Shown piece after piece: positions 4,829 to 64,000 of a stretch of 64,000 bases of DNA. Within the stretch, counting starts at the first letter, position 1. Every line of letters begins with the position of its first letter. Under the pieces are notes generated by a model. It was not told the DNA's origin. It ran no database searches and was given only the letters and a program-made list of their open reading frames with translations. The translations under genes were made by a program, and so were the position numbers. The stretch is from an uncultured Solirubrobacterales bacterium (lineage in GTDB: Bacteria > Actinomycetota > Thermoleophilia > Solirubrobacterales > 70-9): NCBI GenBank assembly GCA_963836415.1, contig CAWIJE010000004.1, forward strand, positions 227,545 to 291,544, in the 5' to 3' direction.

Positions 4829-5754
4829 ACCTCCAGGACGGTCTTCTTATGAGGGCTCTGTCCCTCCCAGACCGAGTCGAGATCGCCCAGTGGGACGCGC
4901 TCGACCGGCACGCTCAGCTCGCCGGCGGCCGCATGGCGGCACATCGCCGCGAAGGCCTCCCGTTTCTGCTCCGCCGACGCCTTGAAGTTCGTGTGGCCGA
5001 TGATCCGCGCCAGCTTGTCGCGGAAGAGGCGGGCCGGGACCTCCGCCGTCGGCCCGGCCGAGTGGCCGACCTGGACCAGGCGGCCCTCCTGATTGAGGGC
5101 GCCGATCGCGGCCATCGCGCTCGCCCCCCAGATCGGGTCGATGACGACGTCGAAGCCGCCGCCTGCCGCATGCGCCAGCCGCTCCGAGAGGTCGTCACCG
5201 TCGTCGAGCTCGACGACGGCGTCGGCGCCGAGCTGCTCGCGGGCCCGGTCGAGCCCCTCCTCGCTGCGCGCCGCCGCCACCACCCGGCCGGCGCCGAGGA
5301 GGCGGGCGCCCTGGACCGCGATCTGGCCGACGACGCCGCTGGCGCCGAGCACGAGGACGCTTTCCCCCGGCTGCAGCTCGGCGCGCCAGGTCAGCGCAAG
5401 CCAGGCGGCGAGGCCGGAGATGCCGAAGCTGACGGCGAGGCCGTCGTCGACCCCGTCGGGGACCTCGATCGCGACCGCGGGATCGATTGCGGTCCACTCG
5501 GCCATCGATCCATAGGGCGGAATCGAAGCGTCGAAATAGACCCGGCGGCCGTCGATCGAGCCGACGCCCTCGAGCCCCGCGACCGAGGGCAGGGCCGGCT
5601 CGCGGTTAGGGAATTTGCCGGCCGCGATCGTCCTGTCGACCGGGTTGAGGCCGGCGACCGAGACCTCGACCAGGGAGCCCTGGGCCGGGGCGGGCTGCTC
5701 GAAGTCAGCGACCCGCGGCGGCTCGTCGAAGCTGTTGATGATGGCGGCCCTCAA
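4825..5754 (-). CDS. zinc-binding alcohol dehydrogenase / quinone oxidoreductase (MDR family)
   Basis: LRAAIINSFDEPP...VLVLGASGVVGQIAVQGARLLGAGRVVAAARS is the MDR Rossmann motif. The probable TTG start at 5754 lies 3 nt after the stop of the upstream F420 oxidoreductase. The upstream 290 codons of the listed ORF are R-rich junk overlapping that gene. Confidence 0.75.
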   Translation of the reverse strand: MRAAIINSFDEPPRVADFEQPAPAQGSLVEVSVAGLNPVDRTIAAGKFPNREPALPSVAGLEGVGSIDGRRVYFDASIPPYGSMAEWTAIDPAVAIEVPDGVDDGLAVSFGISGLAAWLALTWRAELQPGESVLVLGASGVVGQIAVQGARLLGAGRVVAAARSEEGLDRAREQLGADAVVELDDGDDLSERLAHAAGGGFDVVIDPIWGASAMAAIGALNQEGRLVQVGHSAGPTAEVPARLFRDKLARIIGHTNFKASAEQKREAFAAMCRHAAAGELSVPVERVPLGDLDSVWEGQSPHKKTVLEV

Positions 5755-5756
5755 CG

Positions 5757-6749
5757 CTAGCCGCGGCTCAGTGATCGAGTCAGCCGCGGCAGGACCTGGT
5801 GGCCGTAGACGTCGACCGCGGTGACCGGATCGGCGCCGGAGTTGTTCATCAGGGCCACGGTGGTCGCGCCGAGCTCTTCGACCTGGCGCACCCGCTCGGC
5901 GTGGAGGTCGGGGTCGGAGGAGATGATCATCGCCTCCTTCAGGTCGTCGTCGGAGACCTGCTTCTCGGCATGCTCGGACATCGCCGCCGGGTCGTGCCAG
6001 GCCTCGGTGTAGAACTCCTTCGGCTGCGCTCCCTTCCAGACCCGGGCCCCCTCGAGCGCGGCGTCGTCGTCCTCGGCCCAGGAGAAGGCCGCCTGCAGGA
6101 CGATCTCGCCGGGTGCCCGCCCGGCGTCGTCGGCGGCGCCACGGTAGGCATCGAGGATCGACGGCACCGTCTCCTGGTCGGCCAGCGTCCAGAGTCCGTC
6201 GCCCTGGCGCCCGGCGACCGCGGCGGCTTCGGGGCCGAAGGCGGATACGTAGATCGGAGGGCGCCGATCGGGCCGGGTGTGGAGCACCGCCCCGTCGGCG
6301 CTGAAATGCGCGCCCTCGCCGCTCACGGTCTTGCCCTCGAAGAGGACCTTGATCAGTTCCAGCGCCTCCTCCATGCGCTCGATCTGCTTCCCGGGGGGCG
6401 GCCACTCGGCCCCCAGCGGCGACTCGTTGAGCGACTCGCCGGAGCCGATGCCGAGGTAGGGCCGGCCCGGGAACAGCTGCTCCAGCGTCGCCCAGGCCTG
6501 CGCGATCAGAACCGGGTGGTAGCGAGGCCCGGCGGGCGTCACCGCGGTCCCCAGGGCGACGTCCTTGGTCGCGTGACCGGCGGCGCCGAGCCAGACCCAG
6601 GCCTGGCCGGACTCGCCGCCCTCCCACCAGGGCTGCAGATGATCGCTGCAGCCGATGCCGTCAAAGCCGACCGCTTCCGCCGCGACGGCCTGACGCAGCA
6701 GGTCCGCCGGCTCGAACTGCTCGTGCGCACAGATATGGAAGTAGCGCAT
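5757..6749 (-). CDS. LLM-class F420-dependent oxidoreductase (F420-dependent glucose-6-phosphate dehydrogenase-like)
   Basis: MRYFHICAHEQFEPADLLRQAVAAEAVGFDGIGCSDHLQPWW...LGIGSGESLNE closely parallels Fgd/luciferase-like monooxygenase sequences. The likely start is the M at 6749. Confidence 0.8.
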   Translation of the reverse strand: MRYFHICAHEQFEPADLLRQAVAAEAVGFDGIGCSDHLQPWWEGGESGQAWVWLGAAGHATKDVALGTAVTPAGPRYHPVLIAQAWATLEQLFPGRPYLGIGSGESLNESPLGAEWPPPGKQIERMEEALELIKVLFEGKTVSGEGAHFSADGAVLHTRPDRRPPIYVSAFGPEAAAVAGRQGDGLWTLADQETVPSILDAYRGAADDAGRAPGEIVLQAAFSWAEDDDAALEGARVWKGAQPKEFYTEAWHDPAAMSEHAEKQVSDDDLKEAMIISSDPDLHAERVRQVEELGATTVALMNNSGADPVTAVDVYGHQVLPRLTRSLSRG

Positions 6750-11601: not shown

Positions 11602-12519
11602 GTGAACGTCCTGATCGCGGCGGACATGGAGGGCATCGCGGGGATCGACGATTACGGCGACTGCCTCCCCTCCCACCCGGGCGCCTACGCGCGGGGCCGG
11701 CGACTGATGACCGATGAGGTGCTGACCGCGATCGACGCCCTCGAGGCGGCGGGTGTCGAGCGGATCGTGGTCGGCGACTGGCACATGGTCGGCACCAACG
11801 TCGAACGCGACCGCATGCCGGCCGGGGTCGAGGTGCGGCCGATCGCCGACCTTGCCCTGGTCGAGTCCGAACCGTCCTTCACCAAGGCGGCCGGCGGGCC
11901 GCTCGACGCGGTCGTGATGATCGGCCACCACGCCCGCACCAAGAGCCCGCGCGGTTTCTCCTCGCACAGCTTCATCTGGGAGATGGAGGTGGCGCTCGAC
12001 GGCGAGCCGCTGAGCGAGGTCCAGGTCTACGCCCAGGGGCTCGCGGCGGAGGGGATCCCGGTCCTCGCCTGCGCCGGCGACAGCCACCTGCTCGACGAGC
12101 TCGGCGCCGATGAGCTGGGCGGCGCCCGGCTGGTGCCGACCAAGGAGGGGCTGGGCAGGGCCCGGGCCCGTTCCTACGGCCTCGCCGCGACCCGGGCCGC
12201 GATCGGCGAGGCGATCGGCGCGGCGCTCTCCGCCGAGCTGCGCCCGCCGCCGCCGCGCTCCTATCCCGCCGAGCTGCTGATCAGGCTCGAGGGCGAGGAG
12301 ATCGCCCGGGTCTCGATCGCCGAGCCCGGTGAGCTACTCAGCGCCGTCGCCGACGTCTTCCGCACCAGCGCCGCGGCGCGCGAGTACCGCCAGCTCGCCG
12401 CCCTCCTCCCCGCCGGACACGACTCGCTCCCGCGCGCCCTGCGGCGACGCTTCGGCAGCCTGCTGGCGACGCCGACGATGCGCTCCAAGGAGCGCGCCTG
12501 GATCGCCGCCGCGCCCTAG
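11602..12519 (+). CDS. M55 family D-aminopeptidase (DppA-like)
   Basis: VNVLIAADMEGIAGIDDYGD...VMIGHHARTKSPRGFSSHSF...LACAGDSHLLDE matches DppA. The GTG at 11602 is the likely start; the upstream 119 codons of the listed ORF are R/S-rich antisense of the carboxyltransferase gene. Confidence 0.75.
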   Translation: MNVLIAADMEGIAGIDDYGDCLPSHPGAYARGRRLMTDEVLTAIDALEAAGVERIVVGDWHMVGTNVERDRMPAGVEVRPIADLALVESEPSFTKAAGGPLDAVVMIGHHARTKSPRGFSSHSFIWEMEVALDGEPLSEVQVYAQGLAAEGIPVLACAGDSHLLDELGADELGGARLVPTKEGLGRARARSYGLAATRAAIGEAIGAALSAELRPPPPRSYPAELLIRLEGEEIARVSIAEPGELLSAVADVFRTSAAAREYRQLAALLPAGHDSLPRALRRRFGSLLATPTMRSKERAWIAAAP

Positions 12520-12526
12520 GCCCGAG

Positions 12527-12973
12527 TCAGTTCGCGCAGCGCGAGCAACGACCGCGGAGGACCACGTCGTGCTCGGAGATCTCGAAGGGGAGGTCGCCCT
12601 CGATCTTGTGGATCGCGCGCTCCAGGTCGCGATCCTCGAAGGCGACCATCCGCCCGCAGTCCCGGCAGATCGCGTGGTGGTGATGGTCCCCGCCGGGGTC
12701 GACGCGCTCGTAGCTCGCCGTCCCCCTGGAAGCCTCGAAGCGCTGCACCAGGCCGAGCTCCTCGAGCTGGTCGAGCGCCCGGTAGACGCTCGCCCTGCCG
12801 ACCGCGGCCCGCCGCCGGCGCAGCTCCTCGTCGATCTCGATCGCGGTCACCGCGCAGTCGTGGCGGGCGAGGGTCTCGACCACGGCGGTGCGGGCTCCGC
12901 CCCGTCGCAGGCCGGCGTCCTGGAGAGTTGCCAGGGCGTGCTCCGCCCAGCTCTTCTCAGCCGTTCTGGACAT
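12527..12973 (-). CDS. zur: Fur-family metalloregulator, probably Zur
   Basis: The Fur fold is indicated by RTAVVETLARHDC...HHHHAICRDCGRMVAFEDRDLE with a C-terminal CxxC. It sits immediately downstream of a Zn-type ABC importer in the same orientation. Confidence 0.75.
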   Translation of the reverse strand: MSRTAEKSWAEHALATLQDAGLRRGGARTAVVETLARHDCAVTAIEIDEELRRRRAAVGRASVYRALDQLEELGLVQRFEASRGTASYERVDPGGDHHHHAICRDCGRMVAFEDRDLERAIHKIEGDLPFEISEHDVVLRGRCSRCAN

Positions 12974-13763
12974 CGTTCGATCGTAGTTGGGCGAGCAGGT
13001 AGGCGGCGACGATCGCGATCGCGACCGAGGCGCCGCCGGCGGTTCCCGCGTAGTAGGAGAGGTAGAGGCCGGCGATGCCGGCGAGGATCGCGATCGCGAC
13101 CGAGAGCGCCAGCATCGGACCGATCCGGTCGGTGAGCTGGCGGGCGGCGGCGGCAGGGCCGACGAAGACGGCGACGACGAGCAGGTTGCCGAGGCCCTGG
13201 ACGGCGATCACGATCGCGATCGCGAGCAGGATGAAGAGCGCCGTTTCGGTGGCGGCGGGCGCGGCGCCGACACCGCGCGCGGCGGAGCGGTCGAAGCCGG
13301 TGGCGAGCAGGCGGCCGTGGAGGACGAACAAGGTCAGACCAGTCAGTGCGGCCAGCGCGGCGGCCGCCAGCAGGTCGCCGTCGGTGGCGCCGAGGACGTC
13401 GCCGAAGAGCAGCTCCTGCAGGCCGGGCGGCGAGTCGGCGGAGAGCGCCAGCAGCGCGCCGAGGCCGAAAAGAGTGGTGACGACGACGCCGACCGCGACC
13501 TCGCGGCTGATCCCCGGGACGCGGGCGACCAGCGCGATCGCCAGCGCCGCGACGAGCACCGCGGGGGCGCCGCCGAGGAGCAGCGGGACGCCTGCCAGCG
13601 CGGCCAGGACCAGCCCCGGGAAGATCGAGTGGGCGAGCGACTCGGCCGCGTAGGAGAGTCGGTAGAGGACGACCCAGCAGCCGATCGCGCCGCCGGCGAG
13701 GCCGACCAGGGCGACCTCGGCGATCGCCCGGCGCATGAACTCTTCGTGCAGTGGCTCGAGCAT
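12957..13763 (-). CDS. metal ABC transporter permease (ZnuB/TroD-like)
   Basis: MLEPLHEEFMRRAIAEVALVGLAGGAIGCWVVLYRLSY is a typical ABC-3 permease N-terminus. The start is the M at 13763, one nt after the ATPase stop. Confidence 0.85.
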   Translation of the reverse strand: MLEPLHEEFMRRAIAEVALVGLAGGAIGCWVVLYRLSYAAESLAHSIFPGLVLAALAGVPLLLGGAPAVLVAALAIALVARVPGISREVAVGVVVTTLFGLGALLALSADSPPGLQELLFGDVLGATDGDLLAAAALAALTGLTLFVLHGRLLATGFDRSAARGVGAAPAATETALFILLAIAIVIAVQGLGNLLVVAVFVGPAAAARQLTDRIGPMLALSVAIAILAGIAGLYLSYYAGTAGGASVAIAIVAAYLLAQLRSNDVQNG

Positions 13764-16321: not shown

Positions 16322-19103
16322 CTAGCGTTTAGGGGGGGATGGCGGCACGAGCGTCGCGATGATCGTGCCGCTGCCGCCTTCCCCGCCTGGGACGCCGGCC
16401 TGAATAGAGACGTCGGCCTTGATCTTGTGCAGCGCCTTGAGTTTGGCCAGGCCCTTGGTCGAGAGCCTGCCGCTGACCGGGACTGCCTTGCCCGGCAGCA
16501 CCGTGACCGTCGTCGACCCGAGTCCGAGCTTCGCCTTCCTTTTCCTCTTCGGGACCAGGGCGCTCACGGCGACCGCGGCCGTGCATGGAGAGCGGCTCTC
16601 CGCCGGACATCCGATCGTCGAGGATTTGATCGTGAAGGTTCCGTTCCTCGCCACCTTCACCCTGCCGCCACGACCAAGCGCAAGGGATGCCCGCAGCCGG
16701 GCCGCCGGAAGCTGCAGATTCTGCACGGGTGTCGGCGCCGGGCAGTCGAGCCTGATGTCGAGGTTGGTCACCGGCGGCGGAATCGTCTGCACCTCGGTTT
16801 CAGTGAAGGCCTGCCCCGAGTTGCCCGGTGCGTGACAGCCATCCTTGGCGGCCTTCACCTTGTAGAAACCGGCGACCACGTCCCAGCCAAAGTGGCCGTC
16901 GGCTTCGCTGAGGTCGGGGTTCCTGCGGTTCATCGGCGACATCACGGCCGAGCCATCGGCGACCTGGGAAAACGGGCCGTTGAAGCTGTCTGACTGGAGC
17001 AGTGTCACCGTCGCTCCCGCAAGCGGAGCGCCGTCGACCGTGTGGACGAGCCCGCTCGGGTCGATGTAGATCGGGAAGGTGATTTCTTCGGGGCCGCCGC
17101 CCGGACCGCCGGGGCCTTCTTCTTCTTCTTCGTTTTCTTCTTCTTCTTCTTCGCGTTCTTCTTCTTCTTCTTCTTCTTCTTCGTCTTCTTCTTCGTTCTT
17201 CTTCTTCGTCTTCTTCTTCTTCTTCTTCTTCTTCTTCTTCGTCTTCTTCTTCTTCTTCTTCCGCTTCTTCTTCTTCCTGTTCTTTCTCTTCTTTTTCTTC
17301 TTCTTCTTTGCTCGCCGGGTGGCGGTCGATGATCGTCACCCGGGCGGCGCCGTGGTTCGGGAACAGCGGGTCGATGTGAAATTTGAAGATCCCGTTTTCA
17401 GGGTCATCGGGGCTCGGTTCGACCGGCTGGTCGGGCGCCACACGGAGGTCCAGGCCATCGGTGAATTCGACCTTCGCTTCGACTTCGTGATCGATCCCGG
17501 TTTCGTATTCGAGGACGAACGGTTCCTGCCAGTGCACCACCGGCACGCCTTCGGCCGACCTGCCACGCACCCCGGACCCGCTGAAGCCGACGCTCGGTGG
17601 TGGCAGCTCGGGAAGGGGGAGGACCACGTCCTGCCCGGTCTTCTCGACTTCGGGCCGGACCCGGGCGATCGTGGTCCGCGTGTGCGAGAGGGCTTTCGAT
17701 GAGGCGGGCGGGAAAGCGGTCACGCGGTATTTGCCAGAGATCGGGACCTGGAGTTTGTAGAAGCCGTTGGAGTCCGTGGTCGTCGATCGACACGGGGTGC
17801 CGCTGCGCTTGCAGACCTGGACCGACGCACCCGCGAGGGCATGGGCGGGCGCCGCCTCGTCCTCGTAGACGTGGCCGCTGATCGCGCCGGCGACGCTGCT
17901 CTCGGCCGAGTCCGTTTCACCTCCGGGGGCGGTGGCGGTGACGGTCACCTTCAGCGACTTGCCGGCATCGGCGGCGCTCGCCGTGTAGCTGGTCCCGGTG
18001 GCGCCGGCGATCGACTGACAGGCACCCTCGGGGCCACAGCGCGACCACTGGTAGGTGAACCCGCCGCTGCTCACTTCCCAGGCGCCGGGACTGGCCGTGA
18101 ACACCTCGCCGGCGCGCGGGCTTCCGGCGCCGGCCGAGAGGGTCGGTGGGGTGACGTTGATCGGTACCAGGGCCGGCGTACAACCGTCGGGGAGCCGAGT
18201 CGGGCTGCGCTCGCCGACGGGCCAGGTGGTCGCGTCGTAGAAGCAGAGGTACTCGACCTCGGAGAGGGGTGTCGTCCAACCGTTCGGCAGCGGCCGGTCG
18301 AGGCTGATTCCCGAGTTGTTCGAGCCCGACGAGCCGTCATAGTCGACGGTGATGCTGGCCGGGCCGACGTTGGCCGGGTCACGCCAGATCAGCAGGCCGG
18401 CGTTCGTGCTCGAGGCGTTGATCGCGAGCCACGATTCGTCCCAGTCTTTGCTGATGCAGACGTTGCAGATCCCTTCCGCCGGCGCCAGTTTCGTGCCGGT
18501 GGCGTCGGGGTGGATCTCCTGGTTGTAGGTGCCGTAGGAGAGGCGCGGCACGTAGGAGCGCATGCCCTGCACGATGTATGGCTCCTGGGTCGGCGCGAAC
18601 GACCAGCGGCGGACGATCCGAGCCGTGTTGGCGGAGGCGCCTTCGTCGAAGAAGGTGTAGCGGGTGCTGACCGGGATCGGGGGGTCGTCGCCCGAGCACG
18701 AAGGGGCCACCGACGTGATCTCCAGGGTGCGGGTGCTGCGCGCCTCCCATGACCCCCTGCTGCAGGCCACCACCGGGCCGGGCCCCTGCCCGTCGGCATT
18801 GCCGTAGGACTGCCCCCAGAACTCGGTCGCATTGACGCAGGTGCCGTTGTTCGCCGCCAGGTTGGGCCTGCTCGAGAACTCTTCGCTCGCCAGGACCCTC
18901 CATTTGACCGATTCGACGCACTCGACATCAGCGCTCGAATCACCGAAGTTCCATTCCAGCTTCGGGGTCGCCACCGTGTCACCGCCCTCGGTGATCGTGA
19001 TCGCCGCCGACGCCGAAGCGGCGCCGAGAGCGAGGACGGCGGCCACCGTAAGAGGCAGCAACAACCATGGACGATTTCTCGAACGTACTCCCCAATAAGC
19101 CAT
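16322..19103 (-). pseudogene. large secreted surface protein with YQW/PKD-like and carboxypeptidase-regulatory-like domains plus a poly-Glu linker; reading frame broken inside the GAA tract
   Basis: ATG at 19103 with signal peptide MAYWGVRSRNRPWLLLPLTVAAVLALGAASASA. The domains include ...FTYQWSRCGPEGAC... and DSNGFYKLQVPISGKYRV. A run of about 45 Glu follows, then the listed 844-aa ORF turns into poly-Arg junk. A plausible C-terminal domain continues in another frame as ORF 16322..17008. A single C interrupting the GAA repeat near 17194 accounts for the shift. Confidence 0.6.
17115..17312. repeat. (TTC)n/(GAA)n trinucleotide tract of about 65 units with sparse G/C interruptions
   Basis: The repeat is directly visible as ttcttcttc...gtc...cgc. 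It encodes poly-Glu on the minus strand. The poly-Phe and poly-Ser plus-strand ORFs 17042..17332 and 17079..17702 are artefacts of it. Confidence 0.9.
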
Positions 19104-26310: not shown

Positions 26311-26652
26311 ATGGATGCCGCCCGTGCCAAGGAGCTGCTCGATCGCGAGCGCGAGCAGATCGAGGCCGAGCTGGCCAGCGTCGAGCGCGACACGCCCGAG
26401 GAGGGCGACGAGCGCCGCGAGCCCGGGGACTTCAACTCCGAGGGCCTCTACCAGGACGAGTTCGACGCCGGCCGCGCCCAGGACCTGAAAGCACGGCTCG
26501 GCGCCGTCGAGCGGGCCGAGGCACGCCTCGCCGACGGCAGCTATGGCGTCTCGGTGCAGAGCGGCGAGACGATCCCCGACGAGCGCCTCGAGGCCCACCC
26601 GACCGCCGAGCTGACGGTCGCGGAGGAGGAGCGCGGAGGCCGACCGGCCTAA
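26311..26652 (+). CDS. DksA/TraR-family protein lacking the Cys4 zinc finger
   Basis: Coiled-coil N-terminus (LDREREQIEAELASVERD), then ...ARLADGSYGVSVQSGETIPDERLEAHP. Canonical DksA has C-x2-C...C-x2-C here, but the positions hold S, V and S. Confidence 0.55.
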   Translation: MDAARAKELLDREREQIEAELASVERDTPEEGDERREPGDFNSEGLYQDEFDAGRAQDLKARLGAVERAEARLADGSYGVSVQSGETIPDERLEAHPTAELTVAEEERGGRPA

Positions 26653-28550
26653 GCCGCTCCGGGCGCCGGCGCGATCGTCGAGCGCGCGCCCGCCTCCCGC
26701 ACCGCCGCCGAGAGGGTCTCGATGTCGTAGGCGCCCTCGTGGCGCCGCTCGTTGATGAAGAAGGTCGGTGTCCCGGTGACGCCGCTCGAGTCGGCGGAGT
26801 CGACGTCTTCCTCGATCCGCGGCGCGTGCTCGTGCCTGCGCATCTCGTCGTCGAAGCGCTCGAGGTCGAGCTCGAGCTGTTTGGCGTACCTGCGCAGGTC
26901 GCGGAAGCGGAGGTCGCCCTGATGGTCGAGGAGGAGGTCGTGCATCTCCCAGAAGGCACCCTGCGCGGCCGCCGCCTCGGCCGCCTCGGAAGCGGTGTCG
27001 GCGTTGGGGTGCACGTCGGAGAGCGGCAGGTGGCGCCAGACGTAGCGCACGTCGCCGAAGTCGCCGAGCAGCTCACGGATCACCGGCTCCGCCCGGCCGC
27101 AGTAGGGGCACTCGAAGTCGCCGTACTCGACCACCGTCACCGGCGCCTCGGCCGGCCCGCGCAGGTGGTCGCGCTGCGGGTCGACCGGCACCGCCAGGTC
27201 GGTCAGCCCCTCGGCTCCGGCCAGCATCGCCCTGATCCGGGCCCGGTTCGGCAGCAGCGAGGTCGCGCGCAGGACCAGCCAGGTCAGGGCCGAGGCGCAG
27301 ATGGCGGCGCTGAGCACGCCGAGCTTCGCCTCCTCGAGCTGCTCGCCGTGGAAGGCCAGGGCGGCGATCAGCAGCGAGACGGTGAAGCCGATGCCGGCGA
27401 TCGCCCCTCCCCCGGCCGTCGCCGCCCAGCCGACCGGCGGCCGCAGCCGGCCACCGCTGAGCTTGGTCGCCAGCCAGGCGGCGCCGGTTACGCCGACCGG
27501 CTTGCCGAGGACGTAGCCGAAGAGGATGCCGAGCGTGATCGGCGAGGTGTAGGCGCGGGCGAGGAAGTCGCCGTCGATCGCGATGCCGATGTTGGCGAGG
27601 GCGAAGAGCGGGACGATCACGTAGCTGGTCCACGGGTGGTAGAGCTGCAGCAGCCGGGCGTTCGGAGAGACCGCGGCGCGCAGCCCGACCCGGGCAGAGC
27701 GCTCGAGCTGCGGCGTCGGCTGCTCGCGGAAGTCGCGAAAGAGGTTGGTGGCGCGCTCGAGCTCGCTGCGCCCCGCCGGGTTGGCGCCGACGACGAGGCC
27801 GGTGGCGAGGCCGAGGATCACCGGGTCGAGCCCGGATTCGAAGAGCGCGACCCAGGCGACGATCGCCAGCAACAGGTAGACGACCCCCTCACGCACCGCG
27901 GCGATGCGGAGCCCCAACATGACGAGGAAGACACCGACCGCGATCAGCAGCGGCTCGAGCTCGACATGGCCGCTGTAGGCGACCGCGATAACGAGCAGGG
28001 CGACGACGTCGTCGACGACGATCGTGGTCAGCATGAAGCCGCGCAGCCGGTCGGGGAAGGCCGGGCCGACAAGCGCCAGCATGCCGAGCGCGAAGGCGGT
28101 GTCGGTCGACATCGCGACTCCCCAGCCGTGCGCCGAGGGGTCGCCGGCGTTGATCGCGAGGAAGATCGCGACCGGGACGAGCATGCCGCCGAGACCGGCC
28201 AGCACCGGCAGCGCCAGCCGGCGCCGCTCGCGCAGCTCGCCGACGTCGAACTCGCGCCGCACCTCGAGGCCGACGACGAAGAAGAAGAATGTCATCAGGC
28301 CGCTGTTGACCCAGTCCCGCAGGCTCTGTGAGAGGCCCGAGCCGCCGACGTCGATCGAGAGCCGGGTGTGCCAGACGCTCTCGTAGGAGGAGAGGTCGAC
28401 GTTGGCCCAGACCAGAGCCGCGGCGGCTGCGGCGAGCAGGATGCTGGCGCTGCCGGTCTCGGTGGTGAGGAAGTCGCGCAGCGGCGCCTGCAGGCTGCGC
28501 GCCCAGGCGGTACGGCCGCTGAAGGCAGATCTGAATCGGAAGAGGCTCAC
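26649..28550 (-). CDS. nhaA: Na+/H+ antiporter NhaA fused to C-terminal DsbA-like thioredoxin domain
   Basis: The NhaA TM core spans residues 1-430. The C-terminal ~200 aa carry VEYGDFECPYCGRAEPV (CPYC active site) and the DsbA fold. Confidence 0.85.
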   Translation of the reverse strand: MSLFRFRSAFSGRTAWARSLQAPLRDFLTTETGSASILLAAAAAALVWANVDLSSYESVWHTRLSIDVGGSGLSQSLRDWVNSGLMTFFFFVVGLEVRREFDVGELRERRRLALPVLAGLGGMLVPVAIFLAINAGDPSAHGWGVAMSTDTAFALGMLALVGPAFPDRLRGFMLTTIVVDDVVALLVIAVAYSGHVELEPLLIAVGVFLVMLGLRIAAVREGVVYLLLAIVAWVALFESGLDPVILGLATGLVVGANPAGRSELERATNLFRDFREQPTPQLERSARVGLRAAVSPNARLLQLYHPWTSYVIVPLFALANIGIAIDGDFLARAYTSPITLGILFGYVLGKPVGVTGAAWLATKLSGGRLRPPVGWAATAGGGAIAGIGFTVSLLIAALAFHGEQLEEAKLGVLSAAICASALTWLVLRATSLLPNRARIRAMLAGAEGLTDLAVPVDPQRDHLRGPAEAPVTVVEYGDFECPYCGRAEPVIRELLGDFGDVRYVWRHLPLSDVHPNADTASEAAEAAAAQGAFWEMHDLLLDHQGDLRFRDLRRYAKQLELDLERFDDEMRRHEHAPRIEEDVDSADSSGVTGTPTFFINERRHEGAYDIETLSAAVREAGARSTIAPAPGAA

Positions 28551-29852: not shown

Positions 29853-31345
29853 ATGCCAACGCCGAGCGACCACCCGACCGAACTGCTGATCGACGGCGAG
29901 CTCTGCGCCGGCGCGGGCGCCACGCTCGCGGTCGAGAACCCCTACTCGACCGCGACGATCGTCGAGCTGGCGGCCGCCTCGACGGAACAGGTCGACGCCG
30001 CCGCCGAGGCCGGCCGCCGGGCCTGGCCGGGATGGGCGCGGACGCCGGCGGGCGAGCGCTGCGAGCTCCTGCACGAGGTCGCGCGGCGGCTGCGCGAGGG
30101 CGCCGAGGGCCTGGCGCGGACGATGACCGCCGAGGGCGGCAAGCCTCTGCTCGAGAACCGCGACGAGCTCGAGTGGACCGCTGCCGCGTTCGACTACTAC
30201 GCCGAGATCGGCCGCGATCACGCCGGCCGCGTGATCCCGCCGATCGAGTCGACGCAGGTGGCGATGGTGGTCAAGGACCCACTCGGCGTCGTCGGCTGCA
30301 TCGTCCCCTGGAACTATCCGCTGCTGCTGCTCGCCTGGAAGGTGGCGCCGGCGCTGGCCGCCGGCAACTGCGTCGATCTGCAAGCCCTCCGAGCTGACAC
30401 CGCTCTCGACCCTGATGCTCAGCGACGCCTTCGGGCACCTGCCCGCCGGCGTCGTCAACCTGCTGGCCGGCGCCGGTGAGATCGGCGCCGCGATCGCCGC
30501 CCACCCCGAGGTCGACTGCGTCGCCTTCACCGGCTCGGTGGCCACCGGCAAGCGCGTCGCCGAGGCCTGCCTGCCGCGAATGGCGCGCGTCAACCTCGAG
30601 ATGGGCGGCAAGGACGCCTTCATCGTCTGCGCCGACGTCGCCGCCGAGATCGAGGTCGCGGCCCGCGGCGGCGCCTGGGCGGCGTTCCTCAACGCGGGCC
30701 AGGTCTGCACCTCGGCCGAGCGGTTCTACGTGCTGGACGAGGTCTACGACGCCTACGTCGATGCCTTCGTCGAGCACACCCTCGGCCTCGTCCTCGGCGA
30801 CCCCTTCGAGGTCTCGACCGACATCGGCCCGATGGTCTCCGACCCCCAGCGGGCCAAGGTCGTCGCCCAGCTCGAGGCGGCGAGCGCCGGCTGGCGCCGA
30901 GATCCTCGTCGGCGGCGACTCCGGAGGCCAGGAGCGGGGCCACTTCCTCTCCCCCGCGGTCGTCACCGGCGCCGCGCCCGACTCCGCGCTGCTCACCGAG
31001 GAGACCTTCGGGCCGGTTGCGCCGCTGGTCCGCGTCGGCTCGCTCGACGAGGCGATCGAGCTCGCCAACGGCACCGAGTTCGGGCTCGGCGCCAACGTCT
31101 ACACGGGGGAGCTCGAGAGCGCGGTGCGCTGCATGCGCGAGCTGCGCGCCGGCACGGTCTGGATCAACGACCCGTTGACCGACAACGACGCCGGGCCCTT
31201 CGGAGGCTTCAAGCAGTCCGGCCTCGGGCGCGAGCTCGGCCGCGAGGGACTCGAGGCCTTCCAGGAGACCAAGCACGTCCACATGGAGAGCAAGATCGAG
31301 CGCAAGGAATGGTGGTACCCCTACAGCGAGTACGGCAAGGCTTAG
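29853..31345 (+). pseudogene. NAD(P)-dependent aldehyde dehydrogenase split across three frames by two +1 frameshifts
   Basis: Frame 1 (29853..~30375) covers ...GCIVPWNYPLLLLAWKVAPALAAGNC. Frame 2 (~30385..~30890) covers KPSELTPLSTLMLSDAF...EMGGKDAFIV...GQVCTSAERFYV. Frame 3 (~30895..31345) covers GAEILVGGD...EETFGPVAPLVRV...PFGGFKQSGLGRELG. Together they make a complete ALDH. Confidence 0.8.
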
Positions 31346-31367
31346 GGGCGCCCCGGGCCGGTCCTGC

Positions 31368-32183
31368 TCAGCTCAGCGCGACCGCGGCCTCGGGCGTGAC
31401 GACGCGGAAGGTGAAGCTCTCCTCGAGATAGAGCTCGACCGCCTCGGCGGTCGTGAGCGGTCGTAGCCGATCGAGAGGTCCTCGCCCGACTCGAAGAGGA
31501 AGTCGCCGCCGCGCAGGCTCAGCACCACGGCGCCCTTCACGCCGGGCGCCCAGACCAGCGGGCCGCCGAGGATCTCGCGCAGGTGCTCGAGCAGCGGGTA
31601 GCCGCCGTGCTCGCTGGTCTCGAGCACGCGGGTGTACGGCGTCGGGGCCGAGCGCCAGGCCGTAAGGGCCCCTCGATGCCCGGCCGCGAGCAGCGCCTCG
31701 ACCGCGCTGGCGACGTGACTGCGGGTAGCGCTCGCAGTCCTCGCCGAGCGCGATCGGGTCGTGCGGAGCTCGACTCGACGCGATGCCGGCGATCCCGGCC
31801 GCGCTTCCAGCCGTGGAAGACGGCCGATGTTCTCGGCGATCGGCGAGCTGCTGCGCGGCCTCGTCGAGCGGGTCGAAGTCGACGTCCTCGGCGCCGCGGT
31901 CGACGTCGGCCAGCTCGCCGCGGGCGACCGTGAACGGGGCGCGCAGCTCGACCAGCGGCAGCACCTGGCGCTGCACCGCCTCGACGCCCTCGGCCGGGCG
32001 CGCTCGGCGACCTCGCCGCTTCGGCCGAGGTTGGTCGCCGGAGTGCTGCCAGCCGTGCGGGCCGGAGAAGTCGACGAGCCGGCGGGCGGCCAGCGCCGGC
32101 GTCAGCCGCTCGCGCGCCTCGTCGTCGAGCAGGTCCCAGCCGCGCTCGGTGATCGGGGCGTGCTCGCGCAGCAGGTGGCTCAT
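31368..32183 (-). pseudogene. family 1 encapsulin (Linocin M18-like) shell protein, interrupted by at least four frame changes
   Basis: MSHLLREHAPITERGWDLLDDEARERLTPALAARRLVDFSGPHGW is a canonical encapsulin N-terminus, and ...TAEAVELYLEESFTFRVVTPEAAVALS* a canonical C-terminus. The middle pieces (VASAVEALLAAG, GPYGLALGPDAV, EHGGYPLLEHLREILGGPLVWAPGVKGAVVLSLRGGDFLFESGEDLSIGYD) alternate between two frames around 31700, 31665, 31640 and 31460. Confidence 0.75.
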
Positions 32184-32574
32184 CGGCCCTGTCCCCTGAG
32201 GCTGCCGATGCCGAGCGACTCCGCCGCCGGCGAGCGGCGCGCCGCGCTCCGCCGCGCCCTCGGTGGCCGCCTCCTCGGCGGCCTCGCCGTGCTCGACGAT
32301 GTCGCCGTCCTGGAACAGGATGCCGGCGGCGATCTCGCGCCAGAGCGGCGTCCGCCGCAGCAGGAACTCGAGGTCCATGCAGAAGTGCTTGAACTCCTCG
32401 CCCTGGGCGTCGTGCATGATCGCCCGCGCCTCGCCGTCCTTCTCGACCGCCAGCCGCTGCTCGTACCAGCCGATCGCCTCGGCCTCCTCGGTCAGCGAGG
32501 CGCACAGCCGGGCGAAGGTCCGCGTCTCGTCGGGCAGCTCCTCGGGCGGCTCGTGGTACTGGTCGAATCCCACG
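32181..32574 (-). pseudogene. encapsulated ferritin-like cargo protein (EncFtn/Flp) with C-terminal targeting peptide; one frameshift before the targeting peptide
   Basis: HEPPEELPDETRTFARLCASLTEEAEAIGWYEQRLAVEKDGEARAIMHDAQGEEFKHFCMDLEFLLRR is an EncFtn-like four-helix motif. In the +1 frame the gene ends ...AAESLGIGSLRGQGR*, a family-1 cargo-loading peptide. Its TGA overlaps the shell ATG (ATGA). In the printed frame the ORF instead reads through into the shell gene. Confidence 0.7.
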
Positions 32575-32583
32575 GTCGACAGA

Positions 32584-33492
32584 CTAGCGCCGCCCGAGCT
32601 CGGCGGCGAAGCGATCCGCGGCCCCCTCACCATGGGCGAAGAACAGCGAGGGCTCGGTCAGCTCGACCTCCAGCACCATCGGCCCGGCCTCGGCCGAGGT
32701 GACGACGTCGACCCGCATGTAGGCGAGCGCGCCGAAGCGCGCGCCGATCGCCGCGACGGTCCGATCGGCGAGCGCCCGCTCGGCCGCCCTCGGCGTCCGC
32801 GGCTCGATCGTCTCGGCGGCGAAGAGCTCTTCGGTGGGCCCGGCGCCGGGCTCGAGCAGGGGGCCCTTGCGGATCGCGTGTGAGTAGGAGCCGCCGAAGT
32901 AGAGCAGCGCGGTCTCGCCCTCGGCGTCGACCGCGGAGACATAGGGCTGGACCATCGCCGTGCGGCCACTCGCGTGGATCGTGTGGACCAGCTCGAGCGC
33001 GGCGGAGCGCTGGTCGGGACGGCCCGGCGAATAGCGCGCGGTGTCCCTGGAGCCGGCCGAGACCGAGGGCTTGACCACGATTTCGCCCTGATGCGGCAGG
33101 GACCGTGGCGACGCGCCCGGCGCGACGAAGTCGGTCTCGACCACCGCCAGCCCGCCCGCTCCGAGCTCGCCGAGGTAGCGCTTGTCGGTGTTCCAGCGCA
33201 GGACCTCGACCGGGTTGAGCAAGGTCGGCACGCGCGCGGCCCAGTCGAGGAACTCCTCGCGGCGGTGCTGGTAGTCCCAGGTCGAGCGGATCAGGACGAG
33301 ATCGAAGGCGGCCCAGTCGAGGCCGGGCTCATCCCAGGCGTGCCAGGAGACCTCGACGCCGCGGGCGGCCAGCGCCGCGACCAGCAGCGCGTCGTCGGCG
33401 TCGCCCTCCGGCAGCGCGGCGCAGGTGGCGAAGGCAAGGCGCTGTCGAGGTGGGTCGTCGATGCGCGAAGTATCGCTCGCCCGCCCAGGCAC
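32584..33492 (-). CDS. ATP-grasp domain protein (RimK/glutathione-synthetase-like)
   Basis: A pre-ATP-grasp N-domain (CAALPEGDADDALLVAALAARGVEVSWHAWDEP...LIRSTWDY) and a central ATP-grasp fold (VVKPSVSAGSRDT...GGSYSHA). Confidence 0.6.
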   Translation of the reverse strand: MPGRASDTSRIDDPPRQRLAFATCAALPEGDADDALLVAALAARGVEVSWHAWDEPGLDWAAFDLVLIRSTWDYQHRREEFLDWAARVPTLLNPVEVLRWNTDKRYLGELGAGGLAVVETDFVAPGASPRSLPHQGEIVVKPSVSAGSRDTARYSPGRPDQRSAALELVHTIHASGRTAMVQPYVSAVDAEGETALLYFGGSYSHAIRKGPLLEPGAGPTEELFAAETIEPRTPRAAERALADRTVAAIGARFGALAYMRVDVVTSAEAGPMVLEVELTEPSLFFAHGEGAADRFAAELGRR

Positions 33493-33572
33493 GGCGTCGG
33501 TTTCGGCGCCCTGCTCCGGCCGTGATATCTGCGACAGTCGTTTCGTCGCACCCCATCCCCGAGGAGGAAGTC

Positions 33573-34288
33573 GTGAAGAAGAACATCCGAGGCAAGCTGA
33601 CCTACGCCAACGTGATGGCGACCCTGGGGGTGTTTCTGGCGCTCGGCGGCGGCGCGGCGTGGGCCGCCGGCAGCCTCGGCAAGAACGCCGTGAAGACGAA
33701 GAACATCGCGCCCAAGGCGGTCAAGTCGAAGAACATCGCGCCGAAGGCGGTCAAGAACAAGAACCTGGCGAAGAACGCGGTCAAGGAGGCGAACCTCGCC
33801 AAGAACGCGGTCACCGCCGCCAAGGTCAAAGCCGGCACGCTGACCCGGGCCCAGCCGCCGCCGGCACGATCGCCGGCACCCAGATCGCCGAATTCGGCTC
33901 GACCGTCACCCTCGGCAGCGACACGACGGCACCCCAGGCGCTGGCCGGGACGCCCAGCTTCACCCCCGCCGCCGGCAAGTCCTACCTGCTGCTCGCTGAA
34001 ATCCAGAGCAACGTCAGCGACGTCGACGGCGCTGGCGGCAGCTCCTGTTCCGCCTACGTCAACCTGCTCGTCAACGGCCACTACAGCGACAACAACTACC
34101 TGCACCTGCAGGCGGACAGCTCGAGCACGGACATCTTCGGGTTCGAGCCGTCGGACTCGCTGAGCACGGCGATCGGGCTGGTCGGAGCGGGAGCAGCGGT
34201 CACCATCACCGAGGTCACCGAAGGCGATGCCGATTGCGGCCCCGGCGCCACCGGCCAGCTGCGCGGGACGATCGTCGAACTCGGCTAG
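33573..34288 (+). pseudogene. membrane-anchored protein with Lys-rich KNAVK tandem repeats and C-terminal beta-rich domain; frameshift near 33855
   Basis: RBS gaggagga then GTG. VKKNIRGKLTYANVMATLGVFLALGGGAAWAAG is a TM helix, followed by five repeats, GKNAVKTKNIAP/KAVKSKNIAP/KAVKNKNLA/KNAVKEANLA/KNAVTAAKVKAG. The sequence then continues in the +2 frame as AAAGTIAGTQIAEFGSTVTLGSD...CGPGATGQLRGTIVELG* (ORF 33425..34288). Confidence 0.5.
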
Positions 34289-34296
34289 CGCGAGGC

Positions 34297-35058
34297 TCAG
34301 CCGATCGGGGTGCAGGGCAGGATGTGGATGCCCTGCAGCTCGGCGCCGCCGGCGAAGAGGATCTTGCCTTCGGTGTAGTAGGCGCCGGTCGGGCAGCCGG
34401 CGGCGAGGTAGGTCCGCTTCTTGCCGCGGAAGGTGAACCTGCGCCCGATCGTCAGGCTGGCGCGGGTCACCGATCCGGCGCCACCGGCGATCGACGGGAT
34501 CGTCGTCACCGAGTGGATGCCGTAGCGGCCGCGGTGGATGCGGCTGATCTTGACCGTCGCGACGACCGCGGTCGGCACCGGGACGGCGACGTAGGCGTGG
34601 GCGAAGAGAAGCGTGGTGCCGCCGTGGACGCCGCCGTTGAAGAGGACCAGCGGGCCCTTGGCGCTGAACGGGATCGATTCGGCGAAGGCGACTTCGACCT
34701 CCCCTCTCCGCTGCCGACGATCGCGTCGGGGCAGGCCTTCTTGGCGGCTGCCGTCGCGCGCGCCTCGAGGCTCCCCTCACGGCACGTGGGCAGCCCTTCG
34801 GCATCGAGCCGGATGCTCTTGTCGAAATCGATGTCGAGCGTCGTCACCGCTGGGGGGTGAGTGCCGTCGGTGGTGCCGATTTCGGCGTCGATCCGACCGG
34901 AGACCGGCGCCTGGCCGCGCTTCGGCAGGCGCGAGGGCGAGATGCCCCCGTCGTCCTTGAGGAAGAGGTTCCCGGCGCGGATGACGTGCGGCTTGGCGAA
35001 GGCGCTCGCGGCGAAGATCAGGGCGAATCCGAGGTATCAGGGCGGCGAGCCGGGTCAT
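34297..35058 (-). pseudogene. secreted hypothetical protein; two frameshifts at short homopolymer runs
   Basis: ATG at 35058: MTRLAALI then, after dropping one C in ...acctc..., LGFALIFAASAFAKPHVIRAGNLFLKDDGG...AVTTLDIDFDKSIRLDAEGLPTCREG...AIVGSGEG. After a G4 run near 34690, it continues EVEVAFAESIPFSAKGPLVLFNGGVHGG...GCPTGAYYTEGKILFAGGAELQGIHILPCTPIG*. Confidence 0.5.
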
Positions 35059-35147
35059 CGGCACGATCCTCTCCCCCGGCGGCCCCCGCCGCCTCCCCAA
35101 TGCGGGGACCCGCGCGGCCGCGAATCAGCAAAGCGGGAAGTCGGGCC

Positions 35148-36301
35148 TCAATCGTCGAGGCGCAGCGCGATCTCCAGCTCCGGCGCGACGTCCTTCAGCG
35201 GCCGCCCGTAGAGATCCTCGACCGCGCGCAGTCGGTTCGTCACCGTGCGGCGGTCGACCCCGAGCACGGCCGCGGTCGAGGAGACGTTGCGCTCGGCGGC
35301 GAAGTAGGCGCGCAGGGTCTCCCGTCCCGTCGCGCCGCCGTCCCGCGCGCCTTCGAGCGGCTCCAGGTAGAGCTTGCGCAACGAAGAAATGACCAGGTCG
35401 TCGCGGATAATCGACGCCAGCAGCGCGACGTCGGCGTAGCGGACGACGGCCTCCCCCTGCGCTCGGCGATCGGCAGCGCCGCCTTTGCCTGGCGGTGGCT
35501 GAAGCGCCAGCCCGCGAGGCCCTCGCCGGGCTCGCCGATCGTCGCCACCACCTGATTCGGTGAGATCTCGGCGAGCGCCGCCACCGCCTGCTCGGCGCCG
35601 AGGCGGTTGCGGCCGCCGAGCCAGCAGGCCCAGGTCAGCTCTTCCTCGCGCCGGACCGCGAGCAGGCGCCGGTCGAGTCGCGCCGCCAGCGCCCGCATCA
35701 CCTCCGGTGCCTCGTCGCCCTTGACCATCAGGGCGAGGTGGCGGCCGTCGAGGTCGTAGCCGAGCTCCGAGGAATCGACGAGCTCGCCGGCGAGCAGGCG
35801 CTTGACGCACTCGCGGCGGCGCTCCGCGGCGCTCCGCGGCCGGCTCGTCACCTCGGCCGCGTGCTCGGCACTGACCGCGGCGAGCAGCCGGTCGCCGATC
35901 GTCGCCTGCGCCGCGAGCAGCGGCCGCAGGGCCGAGCTCGGGACCTCGGCCCGCTCGGCCTCTTCGACCAGGAAGTCGCCGAACAGGGTGTTGCCGGCGA
36001 AGTAGCGGCGCAGGACGGTGTCGAGGGGGACGCCGTCGCGGGCGTCGAGACGAGCCTGGGCGATCAGCTCCGCCGGCACCGCCGGGGCCCGGCGCTCGCC
36101 GTCCTCCAGCACTGTGAGCCGGTAGTCGACGGCGGCGGCCAGGGCTACGTGGAGGCCCTCGAGATAAGCGGGGTCGGCGACGTCGTGCGGATCGGAGATC
36201 GCGTAGACGCGGGTCATGACCGCGGCTTGGATCTCGGGCAGACGCTCGCGCAGGCGCCTCGCGAGCGCGGCTCCGGCGTCATCCAAGCCACGCTTGCTCA
36301 C
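35148..36301 (-). pseudogene. PucR-family transcriptional regulator; frameshift at a C5/G5 run near 35457
   Basis: The N-terminal 280 aa (ORF 35240..36301) form a PucR-like ligand domain. The C-terminal HTH_30, TLRAYFAAERNVSSTAAVLGVDRRTVTNRLRAVEDLYGRPL, lies in a different frame (ORF 35148..35810). The junction is at ctccccctg. Confidence 0.6.
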
Positions 36302-36356: not shown

Positions 36357-38705
<2,349 letters not shown>

Positions 38706-59112: not shown

Positions 59113-60552
59113 TCAGGGAGCGGAGGTGGGCGGGGCGGTCGTCACTCCGGGAGGCAGGCCTTCGAGGCTGGGCACGCCTTCACCGGCTTCTTCGAGGCCG
59201 GGCGGGTATGGCCGCTGGGCGAGCGCTTCGCCTTTCGGCGTGACGATGCTGACCGTCCCGGGCAGCGCCGGTTTCGCCTGGGTGATCGGCGCCGGGCAGC
59301 CTTCAGGGGCTTTTTTCGGGTTCGCTTCGTAACAGGCGGGGTCGGCTTCCGCCGGGCGCCCGTCGCTCTTGAAGTTGGAGCATTTTTCGATCTTGTAGCC
59401 GTCGGCGCAGAAGGTCCGCGAGCGCCAGAGGCTCTGGAAGTTGCCGACGAAGGAGTTGAAGACCGCTTCCTGCTGCTGCTGGCCGAGCTGCGACTTGATC
59501 TGCGCTTCGGCTTCCCCGAGCGGCTGGGTTTTTTCGGGGTTGAGTTTTTCGACCTCGAAGACGACGTAGCCGGCGGTGGTGTATTTCAGCGGCCCTTCGA
59601 TCACGTGCAGGGGCGCCGAGAACATCGCTTCGCCGACCGGGCCCGCGTACTGTTCTTCGCTGACTTTTTCCTGCAGGCCACCGGTTTTCGCGGTTGCCGC
59701 CGATTCCGAATATTTTTTGATCGCCGCTTTCCAGGAGTCTTCGGAGGCGTCTTTTTCGAGCGCCGCCTTGGCGGCTTCGGCGTCCGCCTTCTTTTTCGTG
59801 ATCAGGATGCGGATGTCGCGGCTGGGCGGCGTCGTGAACTGGGTCGCCTTTGCTTCTTCATAGAATTCTTCGACTTCCGATTTGCTCGGTTTGGACGCTT
59901 CTTCGGCGAGCTGTTCCTGGATCTTTTTGCTCAGCGCCTGGATCTTCACCCGTTCGTTGACGTCCTGCGTCGTGTAGTGGGAGGTCTTCAAGAATTTCTG
60001 GAATTCGGCAGGCGTTTTGAAGGTCTGTTCTTTGATTTTTTCCAGTTCTTCTTCGACTTCTTTTTCGTTGACGGAGATTCCCTTTTCCGCCGCCAGACCC
60101 TGGATCCAGATCGTTTCCAGCATGCTGCTCAAGGTCGTTTCTTTGAGTTCGGCGTACTGTTTGTCGCCCGGTTTCGGGACTTTTTTGAGGCCCGAGGCGG
60201 CGACGACCTGCTCGAAGGCGCAGTCGAACTCGGGTTTGGTGATCTCACCGAGGTCCTGGCTGACTTTTTCGCCCTTGCAGTTGGTGAAGGGCTTGTCGAA
60301 GGGAGCGGTCGCGTCGGCGGGAACGCCCTCGACCACCGCGACCGAGCCGGAGGGAATGCTCGGCGGGCCGAGGCCCTCGGCGATGGCAAAGCCGACGAAG
60401 AGGCCGATGAAGAGAACGCCGAAGACGGCGAGGCCGAGACGGCGCACCTCGAGCCGGCCGGGCCCACGGCCCTTCGGAGCGCCTTTTGCGCCTTTCGCTT
60501 TCGACCCGCCCCCACCACGGCTCGCGGCCCTCTGTCCCTTGCTCGGACTCAC
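59113..60552 (-). CDS. membrane-anchored parvulin-type peptidyl-prolyl isomerase (SurA/PrsA-like)
   Basis: N-terminal TM, a long Lys/Glu-rich chaperone-like region, and a PpiC domain (TPPSRDIRILITKKKADAEAAKAAL...GPVGEAMFSAPLHVIEGPLKYTTAGYVVFEVEKL). Confidence 0.75.
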   Translation of the reverse strand: MSPSKGQRAASRGGGGSKAKGAKGAPKGRGPGRLEVRRLGLAVFGVLFIGLFVGFAIAEGLGPPSIPSGSVAVVEGVPADATAPFDKPFTNCKGEKVSQDLGEITKPEFDCAFEQVVAASGLKKVPKPGDKQYAELKETTLSSMLETIWIQGLAAEKGISVNEKEVEEELEKIKEQTFKTPAEFQKFLKTSHYTTQDVNERVKIQALSKKIQEQLAEEASKPSKSEVEEFYEEAKATQFTTPPSRDIRILITKKKADAEAAKAALEKDASEDSWKAAIKKYSESAATAKTGGLQEKVSEEQYAGPVGEAMFSAPLHVIEGPLKYTTAGYVVFEVEKLNPEKTQPLGEAEAQIKSQLGQQQQEAVFNSFVGNFQSLWRSRTFCADGYKIEKCSNFKSDGRPAEADPACYEANPKKAPEGCPAPITQAKPALPGTVSIVTPKGEALAQRPYPPGLEEAGEGVPSLEGLPPGVTTAPPTSAP

Positions 60553-63953: not shown

Positions 63954-64000
63954 TTGCCCGCCCAGGCTACGCTGCGGGCATGCTCCGCCGTCCCTTCGCC

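Follow-up and report, generated by a model that had tools for sequence, protein, structure and literature searches.

Is the encapsulin operon of an uncultured soil Solirubrobacterales bacterium broken in the organism, or only in its assembled sequence? The question is raised by a 64-kb stretch of DNA (hereafter the window; G+C ~72%) in which the gene for an EncFtn cargo protein and the gene for its encapsulin shell, both on the minus strand, are disrupted by inserted bases. The locus is recognisable as a canonical two-gene family-1 Flp/EncFtn encapsulin operon of Solirubrobacterales (Thermoleophilia). The 13 inserted bases in the two genes are probably absent from the organism's DNA, and reflect a local assembly or consensus error.

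Identity of the operon

The shell gene is readily identified. With the inserted bases removed, its product matches NCBIfam NF041155 (encap_f1) with 304 bits against a cut-off of 100, over positions 1-261 of 261. In the raw frames PF04454 (Linocin_M18) recognises it as two fragments, with 105 and 71 bits (cut-off 24.3), which cover profile positions 1-151 and 152-238. A protein search returns 7827 shell homologues at E<=1e-10; 266-aa proteins from metagenome-assembled genomes (MAGs) of Solirubrobacterales and Gaiellales are ~80% identical at 100% coverage, and some of these are already annotated as 'family 1 encapsulin nanocompartment shell protein'. Residues 1-266 align with the solved T=1 shells 9ry4, 7boj (Cfp29), 7odw and 3dkt (E 7e-75 to 5e-48), a comparison made at sequence level only, as are those with solved EncFtns below. 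The gene ends in FTFRVVTPEAAVALS followed by a stop at 31368.

The cargo gene is an EncFtn. PF22277 (EncFtn-like) scores 72.1 bits (cut-off 27) over positions 1-85 of 85. The narrower NCBIfam TIGR04535 scores 87.6 bits, under its cut-off of 125; consequently, the protein is assigned to a divergent actinobacterial EncFtn subgroup on the strength of its profile scores. The ferroxidase centre of EncFtn comprises Glu32, Tyr39, Glu62 and His65 (R. rubrum numbering; EXXH motif) (PMC11202242). A matching signature is found in the window protein, whose LTEEAEAIGWYEQR and GEEFKH stretches align with the EE..WY and EExEH stretches of solved EncFtns. In the alignment with solved EncFtns, the C-terminal peptide ESLGIGSLRGQGR falls opposite their SLGIGSLKG and SLGIGSLRQ tails; the published consensus for family-1 targeting peptides is SDGSLGIGSLKRS (PMC8346489).

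The two genes are arranged as in other systems of this type. The EncFtn TGA (32182-32180) overlaps the shell ATG (32183-32181) in a 4-nt ATGA. EncFtn lies directly upstream of the shell gene in 83 of 84 related loci, 72 of which have the identical 4-nt overlap. The same two-gene order, cargo gene immediately before shell gene, is found in the EncFtn systems of Haliangium ochraceum and Rhodospirillum rubrum and with the Cfp29 shell of M. tuberculosis; the operon logic is that described for EncFtn-encapsulin systems (PMC8346489, PMC11202242). Given the Pfam and NCBIfam matches, the homologues, the alignments with solved structures and the conserved EncFtn-shell order, the locus is therefore a conventional family-1 Flp/EncFtn operon. 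This operon type is common and already known in Solirubrobacterales.

An earlier sequence-only reading had described a ferritin-like gene with an EncFtn pattern, a tail in the +1 frame and a TGA overlapping the ATG of a Linocin-M18 shell; the PF22277 and PF04454 matches bear this out. It had also expected the frame-corrected proteins to match the EncFtn and encapsulin profiles, as they do, and the proposed family-1 system with EncFtn cargo and a SLGIGSL-type peptide holds in each test run.

Like other family-1 Flp/EncFtn systems, the window has a Linocin_M18/encap_f1 shell of ~265 aa whose whole length can be aligned with solved T=1 shells (Cfp29, H. ochraceum, T. maritima), and an adjacent cargo gene with a C-terminal targeting peptide; its EncFtn has the EExxH stretch and the SLGIGSL-type peptide in common with solved EncFtns. 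The differences are the low TIGR04535 score and the 13 inserted bases, which break both frames; nothing else differs. As given, the window has no uninterrupted shell frame, and the EncFtn localisation sequence is out of frame with the ferritin domain. In every orthologue examined, the targeting peptide is in frame.

If expressed from intact genes, the EncFtn would form decamers with ferroxidase centres, and its C-terminal ESLGIGSLRG peptide would dock it inside the shell. The shell, a ~266-residue HK97-fold protein, is predicted to self-assemble into a small icosahedral compartment that would oxidise and store iron.

Inserted bases in the two genes

The shell and EncFtn genes were aligned to four orthologues with frameshift-aware protein-to-DNA alignment, and the aldehyde dehydrogenase (ALDH) gene to an orthologue. 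In agreement with the earlier reading, a single correction restores EncFtn, the removal of an inserted base at ~32222. In the raw three-frame translation, the EncFtn body lies in one frame and the tail, ending in GGESLGIGSLRGQGR and a stop, in the next; this +1 frame terminates as AAESLGIGSLRGQGR.

The shell is more heavily affected than that reading had stated. It had placed at least four changes between 31460 and 31710; we find 12 inserted bases from 32041 to 31450, outside that range as well as within it. An 81-sequence DNA alignment puts them at 11 sites (32041, 32003-32002, 31841, 31825, 31803, 31720, 31681, 31672, 31639, 31456 and 31450) and also shows an in-frame 3-nt insertion at 31771-31769. 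By frameshift-aware alignment there are eight single-base and two two-base events, ten in all. Since no shell residue is lost, all of them are insertions, with no deletion among them. As given, the shell is spread across three frames. Of the 80 related shell genes in the DNA alignment, none carries a private indel of a length that would shift the frame.

Intact cassettes are found in MAGs of uncultured Solirubrobacterales and Gaiellales: OY969912.1 (L009), ERZ25039534 contig_8244 (L084) and DASSHI010000034.1 (L003/L010). These share the gene lengths of the window (130-132 and 266 aa), the ATGA overlap and the GGESLGIGSLRG tail; shell identity is 77-81%, and EncFtn identity is 92-93% in L009 and L084. 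The last two are the closest syntenic relatives and also share the flanking ATP-grasp, ALDH, CHAD, NhaA-DsbA and Lon genes. Unlike the window, they contain intact EncFtn and shell genes.

Frameshifts around the operon

Frame switches were located with two Viterbi frame trackers, of which one, based on codon usage, covered the whole window; a switch was counted where no stop codon lies nearby. Of 18 candidate frameshifts in the 64 kb, 17 fall within 30374-35461. Besides the operon they strike five unrelated genes on both strands, each of which is still 75-87% identical to its orthologues (Table 1). Events in the upstream part of this zone are insertions only; three of the four events downstream of 33.8 kb are 1-nt deletions. 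The ATP-grasp gene lies mid-zone and has no frameshift. Long genes elsewhere in the window are intact (e.g. 26649-28550, 36357-38705, 60549-63998).

Table 1. Coordinates of the operon, its frame disruptions and the affected neighbouring genes in the window
Feature	Position	Strand	Evidence
DcsG-like ATP-grasp ligase gene, intact 302-aa open reading frame (ORF)	32584..33492	-	ORF list; NF058666; PF27100
EncFtn gene, 130 aa with one inserted base removed	32180..32573	-	PF22277, TIGR04535, orthologue alignments, solved EncFtns
EncFtn start (GTG) and stop (TGA)	32573; 32182-32180	-	
Targeting (cargo-loading) peptide ESLGIGSLRGQGR of EncFtn	32183..32221	-	Translation; motif common to orthologues; solved EncFtn tails
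Single inserted base, GGCGGC[G]GAG, parting the EncFtn body from the targeting peptide	32222 (about)	-	Agreeing alignments against four orthologues; DNA alignment
Family-1 encapsulin shell gene, 267 aa with 12 inserted bases removed	31368..32183	-	PF04454, NF041155, homologues, T=1 shells
Span of 12 private frameshifting inserted bases in the shell gene	31450..32041	-	81-sequence DNA alignment, per-site context, frameshift-aware alignments
Convergent ALDH gene, split	29853..31345	+	Pfam Aldedh in pieces; 87% identity to L009
ALDH inserted bases	~30375 and ~30889	+	Frameshift-aware alignment to L009
KNAV-repeat membrane protein (33573-34285), deletion	~33856	+	
Secreted protein (35058-34300), insertion and deletion	~35034 (insertion); ~34705 (deletion)	-	
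PucR-like regulator, 1-nt deletion	~35451		Frameshift-aware alignment

The sole solid frameshift candidate outside the zone lies at ~19840, in a secreted protein (...YAGWSLLVAYGDPAAPP in one frame, RSLRVYDGLAAI... in the next), with no stop codon near.

Consensus error or recent gene loss

The corrected shell does not look decayed. It has no change at the 101 columns that are at least 97% conserved in 75 relatives, which themselves show 0-7 such changes, and it ranks 12th of 76 by mean identity to the family. G+C at the three codon positions is 0.79/0.47/0.98, and there are no in-frame stops. The sequence-only reading had set both recent damage and sequencing error against an old pseudogene; that distinction holds, and error is now favoured of the two.

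The positions of the insertions suggest how such an error might arise. Ten of the 12 inserted bases in the shell adjoin a polymorphic site whose two variants in relatives are precisely the inserted base and the base beside it (null mean 4.85, P=0.003). This pattern is expected of a consensus caller that writes two alleles in tandem. Seven of the 12 extend a homopolymer. The frame disruptions would then be consensus errors in a locally poor stretch (~30.4-35.5 kb) of a long-read metagenome assembly, with the collapse of reads from divergent strains or alleles during polishing as a plausible cause.

The origin of the closest relatives, which are soil MAGs, also counts toward error. L009 (MFD09368.bin.1.80) is a Microflora Danica MAG, and L084 is likely to come from the same project, given its close ENA accession. 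Microflora Danica assemblies are built from Nanopore reads only, with Flye and a single Medaka round; residual indels are acknowledged, and microdiversity is named as a limiting factor (PMC12313526). In L084 itself, the ALDH gene is split at 12127-13624 (128 + 377 aa) and a PucR-like regulator at 5145-6369 (RsbRD_N + HTH_30), which suggests sporadic indel errors in that assembly too.

The residues of the shell point the same way. In the flanking ATP-grasp, CHAD, NhaA-DsbA and Lon genes, the window is sister to L084. In the shell there are 31 positions at which L084 and L009 agree and the window differs; at 18 of these the window has the residue commoner in the family (e.g. A30 91%, A49 99%, T50 96%, D106 96%, Y171 96%), where L084 and L009 share rare derived states. 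The rare residues P30, C49, V50, P100, A106, F171 and Q196, common to both relatives, are lacking in the window. Since the window carries family-common residues while its flanking genes group it with L084, the shell history is discordant and consensus-like, not decayed.

Searches for a chimera with a sampled lineage and for an independent assembly of the same species were negative. A sliding best-hit comparison over 80 shell genes finds no segment nearly identical to another locus (best 0.80-0.94) and hence no direct proof of a chimera. A scan of metagenome_contigs with a pattern over the 31639 insertion, allowing a variable gap, gives no matches, and the protein search finds no shell more than 81% identical.

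Several observations weigh against an error origin. The shell events are insertions only, and five of the 12 do not extend a homopolymer, whereas Nanopore errors usually tend towards deletions in homopolymers. The ratio of nonsynonymous to synonymous substitution rates (dN/dS; three-taxon Nei-Gojobori) is ~0.74-0.91 on the window shell branch and 0.2-0.3 on its sister branches, which alone would fit relaxed selection. The rise persists when codons within four of a junction are dropped, and no asymmetry of this kind is seen in the other genes compared. Window-unique shell residues number 19-26, against 7-11 for L084. Error-free long genes elsewhere, and an intact ATP-grasp gene inside the zone, require the error process to be very local. 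The indels are judged from the assembled sequence; we infer that the window comes from an assembly like those of L009 and L084, and with it the sequencing platform.

If the insertions are real, the lineage would recently have lost its encapsulin system and neighbouring genes, and the zone would be a young pseudogene cluster. The numerous frame changes in the shell, with more in the ALDH, PucR and two secreted-protein genes, and the raised dN/dS with its excess of unique residues speak for such a loss. It is nonetheless unlikely. About 38% of random nonsynonymous changes on the branch would be expected at the 101 near-invariant residues, where none is found. More than half of the positions that differ from both syntenic relatives carry a family-common residue, as described above; the window has just five residues not seen in the family, and with three of these at frameshift junctions only about two remain elsewhere. 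A third-position G+C of 0.98 without in-frame stops is equally hard to reconcile with decay. Bacterial mutation is usually deletion-biased, and the shell has 12 insertions and no deletion. Finally, a single 5-kb zone holds damage in functionally unrelated genes, on both strands.

A more striking form of this alternative is improbable to a still greater degree. It would require a burst of a dozen +1 insertions that left conserved sites almost unsubstituted; in a weaker variant, the DcsG-like enzyme discussed below would be a new accessory of EncFtn-encapsulin systems. If the insertions were indeed real, they would be a sign of some unusual process that generates insertions locally, or of a very recent inactivation of an iron-storage nanocompartment and its neighbours.

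The ATP-grasp neighbour

According to the earlier reading, every gene of the locus is frame-disrupted. This is correct for EncFtn and the shell; the upstream ATP-grasp gene is intact, and can be aligned over its full length with its L009 and L084 orthologues without a frameshift. Its product matches NCBIfam NF058666 (DcsG) with 257.4 bits (E 1.5e-76) over positions 3-295 of 298. PF27100 (DcsG_N) is precomputed on a 100%-identical protein, P0121, and on homologues; the local Pfam copy gives no hits for the gene. As the NF058666 score does not reach the equivalog cut-off of 360, the product is classed by profile score as a DcsG-like paralogue, not DcsG itself. The similarity to DcsG, a D-cycloserine synthetase, is full-length; in place of a cycloserine gene cluster, the window gene has an aldehyde dehydrogenase as its conserved neighbour.

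Could this enzyme be a functional accessory of the operon, co-transcribed with it, with a conceivable role in modifying the cargo or in producing a metabolite tied to iron handling? Its gene shares the strand of the operon and ends 10 nt upstream of EncFtn (3 nt in L009), and the arrangement is kept in three genomes, namely the window, L084 and L009. These are close relatives, however, and shared ancestry explains the arrangement. The ATP-grasp gene is found at only one of 83 encapsulin loci, that of L009, and is absent from the other 82; the L084 locus also carries it but was retrieved via the ATP-grasp gene itself. The C-terminus of the protein has no SLGIGSL motif and it is consequently not a predicted cargo. 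In the more distant relatives L085, L087 and L088, the ATP-grasp gene converges on the orthologous ALDH with a 4-nt overlap and there is no encapsulin in the locus, while in L089 it has neither an ALDH nor an encapsulin neighbour. An accessory role is thus very improbable. The ATP-grasp gene is a bystander, and its adjacency to the operon is lineage-specific; the earlier view that it is not a standard encapsulin partner is sustained.

Since the ATP-grasp and ALDH genes are adjacent without encapsulin in distant relatives, the EncFtn-shell cassette lies, in this clade, between two ancestrally adjacent genes. The contexts of such cassettes vary (e.g. L001, L003), which is consistent with this placement; so is the reported frequency of horizontal transfer among family-1 operons (PMC8346489).

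The convergent ATP-grasp and ALDH genes are a conserved pair, which occupies 5001-7366 in L085 and 5001-7369 in L087 and L088. In the window, the shell stop and the convergent ALDH stop lie ~26 nt apart (31346-31370). This spacer is a private feature of the window; L009 and L084 have a 4-nt overlap at this point.

The 421-aa frame

A 421-aa ORF (32633-31368, minus strand) remains open through the EncFtn and shell regions, because the shell insertions sum to 12, which returns the end of the shell gene to the frame of its beginning. Since this frame stays open between a point upstream of EncFtn and the end of the shell gene, and Flp-fusion encapsulins are known in Archaea (PMC8346489), it might be taken for an EncFtn-shell fusion or a product of programmed frameshifting. 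We reject this reading, which would have a negligible chance of being right: the frame reads only four shell islands correctly (~154 of 266 residues) and loses the targeting peptide, open alternative frames are expected at 75% GC, EncFtn and shell are two separate genes in all 83 relatives, and programmed frameshifting is not known to use ten or more slippage sites that lack a shared motif.

Other features of the window

The gene at 26649-28550 (minus strand) encodes a 633-aa NhaA Na+/H+ antiporter fused to a C-terminal DsbA/thioredoxin domain; the fusion is 83-93% identical in L009, L084 and L024. The membrane-anchored protein at 33573-34285 (plus strand) contains tandem KNAVK/KNIAPKAVK repeats, with two more units than its L084 orthologue. 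A (CTT)64 / (GAA)n tract at 17116-17308 lies inside a minus-strand coding run (~19047-16745) and would encode a long poly-Glu/acidic linker; the reading frame appears to slip in this tract near 17190.

Significance

The locus itself is of little biological importance; operons of this EncFtn-encapsulin type have been well studied and have thousands of close homologues in soil Actinomycetota. Its main value is as a caution. A degraded local consensus in a long-read MAG can mimic a pseudogene cluster and leave open a 421-aa ORF that falsely passes for a fusion; this genome would mislead gene callers, as well as later surveys of where encapsulins occur or have become pseudogenes. The position of the cassette between otherwise adjacent genes is, in addition, a minor example of how mobile family-1 encapsulin cassettes are.

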